A stretch of 64,000 nt of DNA from Alphaproteobacteria bacterium (GTDB lineage Bacteria; Pseudomonadota; Alphaproteobacteria; RF32; CAG-239). The position numbers and the translations under genes were made by a program. The notes under the pieces are model-generated. The model did no database searches. It saw nothing but the letters and a program-made list of their open reading frames with translations, and was not told where the DNA came from. Each line of letters opens with the position of its first letter. Positions within the stretch are counted from its first letter, which is position 1. The stretch lies in assembly GCA_045593845.1 (NCBI GenBank), contig JAZNXK010000004.1, positions 4,436 through 68,435 of the forward strand, read 5' to 3'. This document shows positions 8,537-9,760 of this stretch, piece by piece.

Positions 8537-9760
8537 TTACGAAATATAGCCAAGTTCTTGGGCTTTCCTTCTAGCCTTGCGACAAAGACAGTTGTCTTTG
8601 AGATATTCAGGAAGAATTTCTTTGACAATATCCGCAGGCAAATCCAATAATTTGAGCTCTACCTCTTCACAAAGGACATTGTGTTTATAACATTCAGGAA
8701 GAACTTCTTTTACGATTTGAGGAGGAAGGTCAAAAATTTTAACTTCTGCCTCTTTGCAAAGGACGTTGTCTTTATAATATTCAATCAGAACTTCTTTCAC
8801 GATTTGAGGAGGAAGGTCAAAGATTTTAATTTCTGCCTCATCGCAAAATGCACTTATCTTGATGTACTCAAGGGCAACTTCTTTTGCTACCTCCGGCGGA
8901 AGGCTAAAAATTTTGACTTGCGCTTCATTATACAAATCATCATCTTTGATATACTCAAGTACAACTTCTTTTGCAACTTCAGGCGGAAGACTAAAAATTT
9001 TAACTTGCATATCTTCAGACAAAGCATAATGGTGGATATATTCAAGCAAAATCTCTTTAGCAATATCCACAGGCAAATCAAAAATTTTGAATTCTGCTTT
9101 ATCGCAGAGAGCGTAGCTATCTCGAGTATATTTAAGCACAATCTCTTTTACAGTTTCTGCAGATAAATCAAAAATTTTGACTTGTGCACTAACAGACAAC
9201 CGTTCATCAGCATATTCAAGCAAAATCTCTTTGGCTATTTCCTCTGGAAGATCAAAAATTTTCATTTCAGCCGCCTCGCAGAAAGAGCATTCTTTGACAT
9301 ATTTCCGCAGAACTTCTCTTGCAACCTCAAGAGGAAGGTCAAAGATTTTTACTTGCCCTTCGACATCGAGAGCATAACTACCGATGTACTCTAGCAAAAA
9401 TTCTTTTGCCACATCAATCGGCAGATCAAAAATTTTGAGCTCCGCCTCACAACAAAGATAGTTCTTCTTAAGATATTCAAGCAAAATCTCCCTCGCTAGA
9501 TTAACCGGAAGATCAAAAATTTTGCCCTGTGCAACGCTACACATTCCATACTTTTTGACATATTCAATCAGAATTTCTTTTGCATCTTGCGGAGGAAGAT
9601 CAAAGATTTTAATTTCCGCCACATCAGAAAGGTGATGATTTTGGATATACATAAACAGCATATCCTTCATTTCTTGCGGAGAAAAATTGAAAATCTCCAC
9701 ATCATTATCCCTAATGTCATAGCCATTTTGGATAAGTCTTAATAATTCTTCTTTGTCCAT
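8537..9760 (-). CDS. Tandem-repeat (solenoid-like) protein: 13 x 29-aa repeats, consensus KIFDLPxxxAKEILLEYxKxxxxCxxAEx
   Basis: 407-aa uninterrupted ORF. Repeats cover residues 22-396 (nt 8573-9697). Repeat positions 1-6 and 10-17 are conserved, and positions 7-9 and 18-26 are variable. It has its own terminator (8494-8528). The opposite-strand frames are broken. Confidence 0.75.
   Translation of the reverse strand: MDKEELLRLIQNGYDIRDNDVEIFNFSPQEMKDMLFMYIQNHHLSDVAEIKIFDLPPQDAKEILIEYVKKYGMCSVAQGKIFDLPVNLAREILLEYLKKNYLCCEAELKIFDLPIDVAKEFLLEYIGSYALDVEGQVKIFDLPLEVAREVLRKYVKECSFCEAAEMKIFDLPEEIAKEILLEYADERLSVSAQVKIFDLSAETVKEIVLKYTRDSYALCDKAEFKIFDLPVDIAKEILLEYIHHYALSEDMQVKIFSLPPEVAKEVVLEYIKDDDLYNEAQVKIFSLPPEVAKEVALEYIKISAFCDEAEIKIFDLPPQIVKEVLIEYYKDNVLCKEAEVKIFDLPPQIVKEVLPECYKHNVLCEEVELKLLDLPADIVKEILPEYLKDNCLCRKARRKAQELGYIS

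Follow-up and report, generated by a model that had tools for sequence, protein, structure and literature searches.

The 64-kb stretch of alphaproteobacterial DNA analysed here (the window) carries, on its reverse strand, a gene for a protein that consists largely of tandem 29-residue repeats, and the locus raises the question of what kind of protein this is and what it may do. The first-pass annotation described an orphan protein that would form a helical solenoid, and considered two uses for such an array, ligand reading in the manner of TALE or PPR proteins and a host-targeted role suggested by an F-box-like motif. For the lineage concerned (RF32/CAG-239), the literature found consists of community surveys alone.

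The gene and its cassette

The ORF at 8537-9760 starts with ATG and continues without interruption for 1.2 kb in DNA of 36.5% GC, with a GC3 of 0.32 against 0.41 for alaS. No Shine-Dalgarno-like sequence was found within 30 nt of its start, although such a sequence precedes most of the window's core genes. A terminator-like hairpin begins 7 nt past the stop codon, and the gene lies inside a 1.45-kb cassette bounded by imperfect inverted repeats of ~70 nt (Table 1). The repeat search gave 38 nt of 87% complementarity for the two arms, and pairwise alignment of the arm regions gave a mean column identity of 81% over 89 columns. The 26-nt core of the inverted repeat occurs at two places only in the window, where none is expected by chance, and it was found neither elsewhere in the window nor in 97 loci; Rfam and tRNA scans gave no match near the gene. 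Variation of the DGR or inverton type was considered and rejected, because neither a reverse transcriptase nor a recombinase lies nearby and the inverted repeats surround the whole transcription unit. An opposite-strand ORF (8681-9166) was set aside as a shadow ORF produced by the repeats.

The closest genome (L007; AlaRS 97%, flanks 86-90% identical at the nucleotide level) lacks the cassette at the syntenic site, and a combined tblastn and HMM scan found no further copy of the gene, either in the window or at 80 alaS loci. The ankyrin protein that the first-pass annotation reported in the window is present as a strain-specific ORF at 4898-5353 (-) (Ank_4, E=3e-5), which lies across alaS from the repeat-protein gene. 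As part of the explanation set out below, we consider it probable that ORF 8537-9760 is a genuine accessory gene for a soluble acidic alpha-solenoid, carried in a strain-specific cassette.

Table 1. Features of the repeat-protein gene and its flanks (positions of the window; residues of the protein).
Feature	Position	Strand	Basis and remarks
Complete CDS with stop codon, encoding the 407-aa repeat protein	8537..9760	(-)	ORF listing and translation
N-terminal cap, residues 1-21 (MDKEELLRLIQNGYDIRDNDV)	9698..9760	(-)	Predicted helix 3-11; same start in family members
Degenerate first repeat, residues 22-50 (EIFNFSPQEMKDMLFMYIQNHHLSDVAEI)	9611..9697	(-)	Same register as the clean repeats
Twelve clean 29-aa repeats, residues 51-398	8567..9610	(-)	Alignment, DSSP of the AF2 model, 87-nt DNA periodicity
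Repeats 8 and 9, second most similar pair	8828..9001	(-)	72% nucleotide identity overall, 86% in the first 51 nt
Repeats 10 and 11, most similar pair	8654..8827	(-)	84% nucleotide identity
C-terminal tail, residues 399-407, end of ...LCRKARRKAQELGYIS	8540..8566	(-)	Predicted helix 394-402
Intrinsic-terminator-like hairpin	8499..8530	(-)	13-bp stem with 6 G-C pairs, then a T run; terminator scan and sequence
Left arm of the imperfect inverted repeat bounding the cassette; contains the terminator hairpin	8463..8535	(+)	Repeat search
Right arm, on the upstream side of the gene; degenerate hairpin copy	9850..9923	(-)	Repeat search

Architecture of the repeat array

The first-pass count of 13 head-to-tail 29-residue repeats was borne out, and its repeat consensus is correct. 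Twelve of the units are clean and start with K[IL][FL][DS]L at residues 51, 80, 109, 138, 167, 195, 225, 254, 283, 312, 341 and 370, and the degenerate unit at residues 22-50 was found as the thirteenth by an iterated repeat HMM. The period is 29 residues except in repeat 5 (28) and repeat 6 (30). The array is preceded by a cap whose start, 'M.K.ELL.KI..G..L', is common to the family members P0017, P0029, P0042 and P0056, and is followed by a basic tail, the last 16 residues having a net charge of +3.7. This tail reads as a modified helix A or repeat start and probably acts as a C-terminal cap. Within the family we define a subfamily by its caps, an N-terminal 'M.K.ELL.KI..G' and an extreme C-terminal '[KR]A..LG[WYFL][LMI]', and the window protein, which opens with MDKEELLRLIQNG... 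and closes with ...RKAQELGYIS, has both.

Conserved positions of the repeat are I2, F3, L5, P6, A10, I13, L14, Y17, L23, C24 and A27, and variable positions are 7-9, 18-22, 25-26 and 29. The two hypervariable patches proposed at first (7-9 and 18-26) therefore stand in part: 7-9 and most of 18-26 do vary, but within the latter positions 23 (L/F/M) and 24 (C/S) are conserved, position 29 lies outside both patches and is also variable, and positions 13 and 15 are only moderately conserved. Variability per position in the window protein follows that of the whole family (rho=0.68, p=1.5e-4).

Conservation between the repeats is higher at the amino-acid than at the nucleotide level. At the DNA level 12 copies lie at 87-nt spacing and are 61-80% identical to a reference copy; compared with one another the repeats are 46-84% identical and differ at 10 or more positions, and with TRF the 87-nt periodicity shows up in the younger half of the array (2.2 copies with 86% matches at 8658-8847). 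The description of repeats 8/9 and 10/11 as nearly identical in their DNA was overstated (Table 1), and the recent expansion drawn from it is at odds with a most similar pair that differs at 16% of its bases. In repeats 10/11 there are 14 differences in 87 nt, with six synonymous and six non-synonymous codon changes, and three of the six amino-acid changes in the youngest pair fall on scaffold positions.

Predicted structure and charge

The AF2 model of the full protein (pLDDT 86.8, pTM 0.75) is all-helical with two helices per repeat, which agrees with the helical solenoid suggested earlier, and we predict that the protein is a helical-hairpin solenoid. According to DSSP, helix B spans positions 7-20 of each repeat in the model and is followed by a loop at 21-24; helix A takes in 25-29 together with positions 1-4 of the next repeat, and a turn lies at L5-P6. 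A five-repeat fragment was modelled with a pLDDT of 82.4. The superhelical geometry is uncertain, since the remaining four AF2 models of the full protein have a pLDDT of 55-69 only. Variable positions map to helix ends, loops and predicted exposed helix faces, as they do in any solenoid.

The protein is strongly acidic (pI 4.62, net charge -32), with acidic residues at the conserved repeat positions D4, E12, E16, E26 and E28. Neither a signal peptide nor a TM or other hydrophobic segment was detected in it, the maximum Kyte-Doolittle 19-residue window being 0.86.

Comparison with known repeat families

That no established repeat family matches, as the first-pass annotation had supposed, holds for the sequence scans and, specifically, for the fold. 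Scans of the protein with Pfam, NCBIfam, PADLOC and PHROGs gave no valid family, and sequence and profile searches of the PDB likewise found none. Matches to GUCT, Integrase_Zn and phrog_14042 were rejected as sums of weak per-repeat matches. In the case of GUCT (PF08152), which scores 28.7 bits against a cut-off of 27, the single stretch listed covers only profile positions 45-80 of a domain of ~96 residues; GUCT is expected C-terminal to a DEAD-box helicase and the repeat protein has no helicase domain, and P0101, an unrelated protein, matches the same profile segment with 0 stretches. Pfam scans of 20 profile-search matches returned nothing for family members, the NB-ARC and EAD matches belonging to unrelated tail matches. 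In the PDB, matches to SigW region 4, HIV integrase and HSF (E at least 0.24) were discarded as reflecting only a common 'LP...E..L.Y'-type motif, and LRRC23 is the only LRR trace (E=0.017 in the sequence search, residues 15-60).

With the full model and the five-repeat fragment as queries, Foldseek retrieved nothing but generic solenoids from PDB and BFVD, among them designed helical repeats, HAT/HEAT proteins, INTS3 and a TOG domain. With HEAT/ARM-like solenoids, including designed DHR proteins, the window protein shares tandem helix-turn-helix units, a conserved hydrophobic core and a variable surface. However, the period of HEAT repeats is about 37-47 residues and that of the three-helix ARM repeats about 42, against 29 here, the structural similarity is generic (TM at most 0.34 for the full model and 0.54 for the fragment, with fragment E at least 0.075) and no HEAT or ARM Pfam model appears at E<=10, so that beyond the common two-helix hairpin topology we do not assign it to either. 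Closer in length are the PBS-lyase HEAT-like repeats (about 30 residues) and LRV repeats (24 residues), which are also short all-helical repeats of bacterial proteins, but neither HEAT_PBS nor LRV matches in Pfam, and the K-I-F-D-L-P...A-K-E-I-L-L-E-Y...L-C-x-E-A-E motif is unlike their consensus. The top BFVD match, a phage protein annotated as leucine-rich repeat variant, has a TM of 0.24 and an rmsd of 28 Å. Membership of the LRR class was rejected, as the prediction is all-helical whereas LRR proteins have a beta-strand per repeat (LxxLxLxxNxL). Ankyrin repeats are 33 residues long and have beta-hairpin loops, whereas no Ank model in Pfam matches the protein and its AF2 model lacks strands; profiles of the TPR, Sel1 and HAT hairpins (34-44 residues) do not match it either, the HAT/TPR structural matches (Prp6) having a TM of 0.34 or less. 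We conclude that the unit is a new repeat type within a known structural class, the alpha-solenoid.

There is also a likeness to an unnamed repeat domain of ~75 residues, found in P0058 (from EukProt, a eukaryotic transcript) and in P0101 (no source name), which shares with the window family a 37-column segment, [LF]xx[FY]....L[NC]x[ED]A[QE]xK[LI]FxLPxEVxxxVxxx[FY]. The match to the eukaryotic-transcript domain has an hhalign probability of 95.7% and a library-wide E-value of 5e-10. However, the match takes in just about half of that domain, which recurs every 62-80 residues or so (mostly 74-79) and carries an extra NGKFIxFAxSVEK segment. The likeness may reflect common descent or a convergent helix-LP-helix motif, and this partial but significant profile match is the one lead that may point to the host-targeted or eukaryote-like role raised at first.

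A small family in gut and rumen Alphaproteobacteria

The protein is not the orphan it was first taken for. A word-indexed search gave 5 homologues, and an exhaustive search of 1.84 billion proteins with a two-repeat profile gave 122 cluster representatives at E<=1e-3, including 50 at E<=1e-10 and 7 at E<=1e-30. The iterated repeat HMM recognised 395 repeat units in 68 proteins, with a modal period of 28-29 and from 2 to 16 repeats per member, the 89-residue homologue P0042 having two. We define this 'KIFDLP' family by a unit of 27-31 residues, repeated in tandem, that carries the motif K-[ILM]-F-[DE]-L-P-x(1-3)-A-x-E-[IL]-L-x-x-Y-x(5-6)-L-[CS]-x-E-A-[QE]; the window protein has 13 such units. 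The extreme C-terminal end of the subfamily is found in ~15/67 family representatives.

Where a source is given, members are hypothetical proteins encoded by MAGs of uncultured Alphaproteobacteria, and gut and rumen MAGs make up the closest genomes. Other members are stand-alone genes between housekeeping genes, with neighbours that have no Pfam match, and no conserved neighbouring gene hints at a partner. Some genomes have several paralogues, and at one locus (L091) two of them lie near an Ank_2 protein. In P0024 a TM region at the N-terminus precedes the array. Acidity is not shared throughout the family, since pI values span 4.4 to 9.9 and several members are basic, with a pI above 9. An exact-product look-up of the window protein gave no match, and scans of genome contigs and metagenome contigs with it gave no relatives. 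Judged by these searches, the family is small, is unnamed in every library searched and is so far found in uncultured gut and rumen Alphaproteobacteria.

Possible functions

The explanation that we favour, and hold to be probable when taken as a whole, is that of an accessory gene encoding an acidic alpha-solenoid of a new repeat family, which would serve as a protein-binding scaffold. The gene product would be a soluble, strongly acidic alpha-solenoid made of an N-terminal cap, 13 helical-hairpin repeats and a basic C-terminal cap. The conserved positions would supply the hydrophobic core and LP turn by which one hairpin stacks on the next, and the extended repeat surface would bind a protein or peptide partner, as scaffold, adaptor or decoy, like other solenoids. 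That it is a protein-binding scaffold is probable by analogy, the binding being read from the structural class alone, and a basic partner is plausible because the conserved acidic residues form a regular array.

Export of the protein as an effector, for example through a type IV or type I system that reads the basic C-terminal tail, would allow it to bind a protein of the animal host, of a gut protist or of a microbial competitor. It would then resemble the Ank, Sel1/TPR and LRR effectors of Legionella, Rickettsia and Wolbachia: its gene stands alone, is lineage-specific and strain-variable, and has an ankyrin gene nearby, in a bacterium that is presumably host-associated, although the window protein is in none of those repeat families. 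The accessory, cassette-borne nature of the gene is consistent with this, as are the strain-specific ankyrin gene across alaS and the L091 paralogues near an Ank_2 protein, the charge of the last 16 residues and the recurrent C-terminal motif, the match to the eukaryotic-transcript domain, and the animal gut and rumen origin of the named members and closest genomes. We nevertheless think it unlikely. Secretion-system genes are absent from the window, the protein has no signal peptide, and neither an intracellular life nor the injection of effectors is known for these bacteria, to our knowledge. Moreover, the C-terminal motif, when aligned with the beginning of a repeat, reads as a degenerate form of it (LCRKARRKAQELG against LCxEAExKIFDLP) and is therefore explained by a simple solenoid cap, and the N-terminal TM region of P0024 suggests that at least one member has a cell-associated role. 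A fuller version, in which a cassette-borne class of exported effectors or decoys, specific to gut Alphaproteobacteria and linked through the EukProt match to a protist repeat domain, would use the acidic superhelix to capture a basic host, protist or phage protein, with the target tuned by repeat number and surface residues, is in our view a long shot. A different use of the charge, in which the acidic superhelix sequesters basic or DNA-binding proteins (restriction enzymes, nucleoid or histone-like proteins) as a polycation binder or nucleic-acid mimic of the Ocr/ArdA type, would suit both the acidic residues at conserved positions and a mobile-looking cassette, but it is a reading from charge alone and very improbable, given that PADLOC has no match, that the PHROGs matches are repeat-summed only, that there is no similarity to known mimics and that several family members are basic.

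The remaining readings are scarcely credible. A sequence-specific DNA or RNA reader with TALE/PPR/PUF logic, which extends the TALE or PPR logic put forward in the first-pass annotation to one repeat per base and the variable residues as the code, is suggested by tandem helical repeats that are uniform in length and differ from one another at certain positions, but the window protein differs from such readers in period (29 against 33-35 in TAL effectors and 35, 36 or ~30 in PPR, PUF and mTERF repeats), sequence and charge. It has at least 10 variable positions per repeat, against one or two code positions (two adjacent ones, the RVD, in the otherwise nearly identical repeats of TAL effectors), and the same positions vary family-wide; nucleic-acid binding, for which a protein like a TAL effector should have a positively charged surface, is poorly compatible with its pI and net charge. 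TAL_effector, PPR, PUF and mTERF models are absent at E<=10 (the last three also in 10 homologues), and the Foldseek matches to PUF are weak (E=7.5e-3 and TM 0.16 for the full model, E=1.2 for the fragment). We give equally little weight to mimicry of a ubiquitin-ligase adaptor, in which the LPxE[IV]AKE[IV]LLEY core would be the start of an F-box that binds Skp1. The resemblance to LPxEIL noted earlier is accompanied by matches to PRANC (E=0.027) and F-box-like_2 (E=0.41), but these fall far below their curated cut-offs (15.2 against 25.8 bits and 11.1 against 21.6 bits), the canonical models (PF00646, PF12937) do not appear at E<=10, and 13 tandem 29-residue two-helix hairpins with no other domain are unlike a single ~45-residue three-helix F-box joined to a substrate-binding domain. 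The reading as a spurious ORF, or one in decay, within a repetitive insert between genes would account for the missing Shine-Dalgarno-like sequence, the GC3 below that of alaS and the absence of an identical or close orthologue from the collections searched, yet it is hard to reconcile with an uninterrupted frame of this length in such DNA, with conservation of the repeats that is greater in amino acids than in nucleotides, and with the gene's own terminator and homologues in many genomes that share the caps and the motif.

Implications

Pending a partner or a phenotype the family is so far a descriptive finding. With its clear caps, the short and regular two-helix unit of 29 residues would add a natural repeat type to the catalogue of alpha-solenoids and could be of interest to protein designers. 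The carriers are uncultured gut and rumen Alphaproteobacteria that are functionally almost blank, and in them this lineage-restricted repeat family may mark interaction with a host, protists, phages or other microbes, because its copy number runs from 2 to 16, several paralogues occur in some genomes, and its sites are strain-variable and lie beside ankyrin genes.

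The repeat array

The minus-strand repeat gene of the window starts with ATG and encodes 407 amino acids, in which 12 clean units in register open with K[IL][FL][DS]L (residues 51, 80, 109, 138, 167, 195, 225, 254, 283, 312, 341 and 370), at a spacing of 29 except for one interval of 28 and one of 30. Residues 22-50 form a degenerate unit, bringing the total to 13, so that the array of tandem 29-aa repeats reported in the first-pass annotation was found, and the consensus proposed there was borne out in the alignment of the repeats. In the DNA, 12 copies lie at 87-nt spacing with 61-80% identity to a reference copy, and in the output of Tandem Repeats Finder the 87-nt period shows up in the younger 3' half of the gene alone. 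Adjacent repeats had been described as nearly identical in DNA; repeats 10 and 11 share 84% of nucleotides (14 differences; 6 synonymous and 6 non-synonymous codon changes), repeats 8 and 9 share 72% (86% over the first 51 nt) and the remaining pairs 46-69%. Recent expansion is thus an over-reach, the closest pair being only 84% identical, and because the copies diverge this much their collapse in the assembly is unlikely.

The start of the gene lacks the Shine-Dalgarno-like sequence that precedes most core genes, and the GC content of the gene (36.5%) is below that of the window (38.3%). The C-terminal sequence LCRKARRKAQELGYIS can be aligned to LCxEAExKIFDLP of the repeat and may be read as a C-cap, since the acidic and core residues of the segment are replaced there. 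The protein has a pI of 4.62 and a net charge of -32 (82 D+E vs 50 K+R), with the acidic residues on conserved repeat positions and a net charge of +3.7 in the final 16 residues.

Predicted structure and variable positions

AlphaFold2, run without an alignment, gave a best model with mean pLDDT 86.8 and pTM 0.75 (the other four models, 55-69 pLDDT) in which every repeat has two helices, and a five-repeat fragment (pLDDT 82.4) showed the same helix pattern. All Foldseek hits in the PDB were generic alpha-solenoids (designed helical repeats, Prp6 HAT repeats, transportin HEAT repeats), a likeness of fold class at low TM-scores (at most 0.34); the five-repeat fragment reached a TM of no more than 0.54, with E values from 0.075 upwards (INTS3, a TOG domain). 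The best match in BFVD was a phage protein annotated as a leucine-rich repeat variant (TM 0.24).

Entropy calculated at each position of the 12 clean repeats, counting from the K of K-I-F-D-L-P, marks 1-6, 10-12, 16-17, 23 (L/F/M), 24 (C/S), 27 (A) and 28 (E/Q) as conserved, 13-15 as intermediate, and 7-9, 18-22, 25-26 and 29 as variable. Variation had been placed at 7-9 and 18-26, which holds apart from 23 and 24. The conserved A10, I13, L14 and Y17 have the i, i+3, i+4, i+7 spacing of one face of helix B, and the secondary structure would put the variable residues in the loop, at the ends of the helices and on their opposite faces.

A small repeat family

Although the protein had been taken for an orphan, a word-indexed search found five homologues (32-37% identical in the best local alignment), and a two-repeat profile built from its own repeats, searched exhaustively against 1.84 billion proteins, matched 122 representative clusters at E<=1e-3 (50 at E<=1e-10, 7 at E<=1e-30), the weakest being other repeat types, NB-ARC proteins among them. 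No collection searched held a close orthologue. An iterated single-repeat HMM located 395 units in 68 proteins, with a modal period of 28-29 and the consensus K-[ILM]-F-[DE]-L-P-N-A-x-E-[IL]-L-x-x-Y-[IV]-K-x-x-x-x-L-[CS]-x-E-A-[QE]. The shortest members have 88-89 aa and two repeats (P0029, P0042, P0056), the longest, P0024, 739 aa and 16 repeats after an N-terminal TM region; the median pI of the family is 5.7 (4.4 to 9.9). The N-cap 'M.K.ELL.KI..G' is common to the window protein and part of the family, and its extreme C-terminal '[KR]A..LG[WYFL][LMI]' to about 15 of 67 representatives, while in a second subfamily, ~400 aa long, the proteins begin with 'MKK..L.WLDFLA' and end with 'LAV..YF'. 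The few named members are 'MAG: hypothetical protein [Alphaproteobacteria bacterium]' or come from an '[Acetobacter sp.]' MAG.

In other genomes the genes stand alone among housekeeping genes and Pfam-less neighbours, with no conserved operon partner at the loci examined. At locus L091 (NCBI GCA_965648045.1) two paralogues of the ~400-aa subfamily lie ~3 kb apart near a 361-aa Ank_2 protein, interleaved with ribosomal-protein genes. At L087, as at L088 and L089, a 129-aa bacterial gene with a precomputed match to PF00277 (serum amyloid A) lies close to the family member P0004 (~640 nt upstream), which adds a further eukaryote-like domain to those encoded here.

P0058, a 1171-aa eukaryotic transcript from EukProt, and P0101 (552 aa) share an unannotated repeat of ~75 aa, FxxxWxLNxDAQxKLxSLPPEVQxxVxxxFxP...NGKFIxFAxSVEK. 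The first half of this unit, 37 columns, aligns to the profile of the bacterial repeats (hhalign probability 95.7%; library E=5e-10), which could reflect either common descent or convergence.

The locus

The window is core chromosome (an ABC transporter, radC, map, alaS, folD, miaB, phoH, lnt, metK, recJ, xseA, thyA, mipZ, trxB, mfd, recG, rpoD and dnaG). Its AlaRS shares 97% identity with the one in the closest genome, L007, a yak-rumen MAG labelled Alphaproteobacteria bacterium; for dozens of alphaproteobacterial MAGs from gut and rumen the figure is 57-79%. The flanks of the repeat gene are syntenic with L007 at 86-90% nucleotide identity, save for three segments (see table); the repeat gene is missing at the syntenic site, the only one for which absence was shown.

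Features of the window, of the repeat and of related loci
Feature	Position	Remark
Helix A	repeat position 25 to position 4 of next repeat	AlphaFold2 model
Turn	L5-P6	AlphaFold2 model
Helix B	repeat positions 7-20	AlphaFold2 model
Loop, four residues	repeat positions 21-24	AlphaFold2 model
Segment without L007 counterpart	4784-5467	holds ankyrin ORF
Ankyrin terminator hairpin	near 4820-4855	
Ankyrin-repeat ORF	4898-5353 (-)	151 aa; Ank_4 E=3e-5
Small tandem unit	8183-8478	
Segment without L007 counterpart	8246-9944	holds repeat gene
Cassette left arm	8463-8535	imperfect inverted repeat, ~70 nt; contains repeat gene's terminator hairpin
Repeat gene	8537-9760 (-)	
Cassette right arm	9850-9923	imperfect inverted repeat, ~70 nt
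Small tandem unit	9946-10290	
Small tandem unit	10294-10626	
Segment without L007 counterpart	10665-11414	holds 247-aa orphan
Orphan ORF	10675-11418 (+)	247 aa
TerB-domain gene	11428-11856	
Large ORF	12293-14743 (+)	816 aa
Large ORF	16294-17517 (-)	407 aa
TerB-domain gene	17524-17952	
Large ORF	56520-58196 (-)	558 aa
Small unit, L007	8629-8981	one copy
Family gene, L001	between rpoBC and rplKA	
Family genes, L091	between rpsF-rplI and rplJL	P0030, 3911-5119; P0022, 8001-9233; Ank_2 protein nearby
Family gene, L093	adjoins efp	
Family gene, L092	between mutL and priA	
Family gene, L096	between HU-like gene and amino-acid permease gene	
Family gene, L087	near dtd	
PF00277 gene, L087	8975-9364	

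The inverted-repeat arms surround the entire transcription unit of the repeat gene, each composed of a T-run, a conserved 24-nt core, an A-run and a GC-rich palindrome. A 38-nt core is 87% complementary between them, the aligned arm regions have a mean column identity of 81% over 89 columns, and the core sequence was found neither elsewhere in the window nor in 97 related loci; insertion, duplication-inversion and a mobile cassette are all possible origins. The cassette lies between the first and second copies of a small unit that carries a conserved promoter-like CTTGACAG-N-TAGTAT site and leader, a poorly conserved ORF of 73-89 aa, in which two hydrophobic stretches look TM-like by eye, and a terminator hairpin, AAGGAATGAGCTGTCTCATTCCTT, which itself codes for the conserved C-terminal QGMSCLIPFF. 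The units match nothing in Pfam, PADLOC, PHROG or Rfam.

The 685-nt segment of the ankyrin ORF is missing from the otherwise syntenic L007, so this ORF, which has its own terminator, is a second repeat-protein gene beside alaS that is specific to the strain. The 247-aa orphan, also missing at the syntenic site of L007, had no match in Pfam, PADLOC or PHROG. Three large ORFs belong to no Pfam family, the 816-aa one having an 832-aa counterpart in L007 inside a stretch of ~73% nucleotide identity, and two TerB-domain genes lie in the same neighbourhood.

Discussion

The first-pass annotation was essentially correct in its observation and partly correct in its interpretation. A helical solenoid of a repeat type outside known classes agrees with the two-helix units and with the outcome of the profile searches, which gave no valid assignment of the window protein in Pfam, NCBIfam, PADLOC or PHROGs, no match in PDB sequence and profile searches, and no Pfam domain in any of 10 family members scanned. 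The scores for GUCT (Pfam; 28.7 bits, cut-off 27, one stretch listed) and Integrase_Zn (27.1 bits, no stretch listed) add up weak matches of individual repeats to a profile fragment, and the same GUCT segment is matched by the unrelated P0101. The suggested likeness to an F-box found no support, with F-box-like_2 at E=0.41 and PRANC at E=0.027, both far under cut-offs, and canonical F-box models absent from the Pfam listing at E<=10.

The clustering of variation had also prompted a reading by ligand-reading logic of the TALE or PPR kind. Entropy per position in the window repeats correlates with that seen family-wide (Spearman rho=0.68, p=1.5e-4), the window repeats being more uniform overall, as expected for expansion within the gene, and three of the six amino-acid changes in the youngest pair hit scaffold positions (15, 17, 27). 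Neither repeat entropy nor these changes gave any sign of focused diversification, and the pattern is the ordinary solenoid contrast of core and surface; TALE/PPR/PUF-like reading of nucleic acid is disfavoured because of the acidic pI and charge. The protein might be exported as an effector, though this is unsupported; it has no signal peptide or TM segment, and the 64-kb window has no secretion-system gene. The best-supported reading is that the accessory cassette gene encodes what is probably a soluble, acidic, protein-binding alpha-solenoid. Its family is small and so far found in uncultured gut and rumen Alphaproteobacteria; what is new is the repeat type, its structural class, the alpha-solenoid, being already known.
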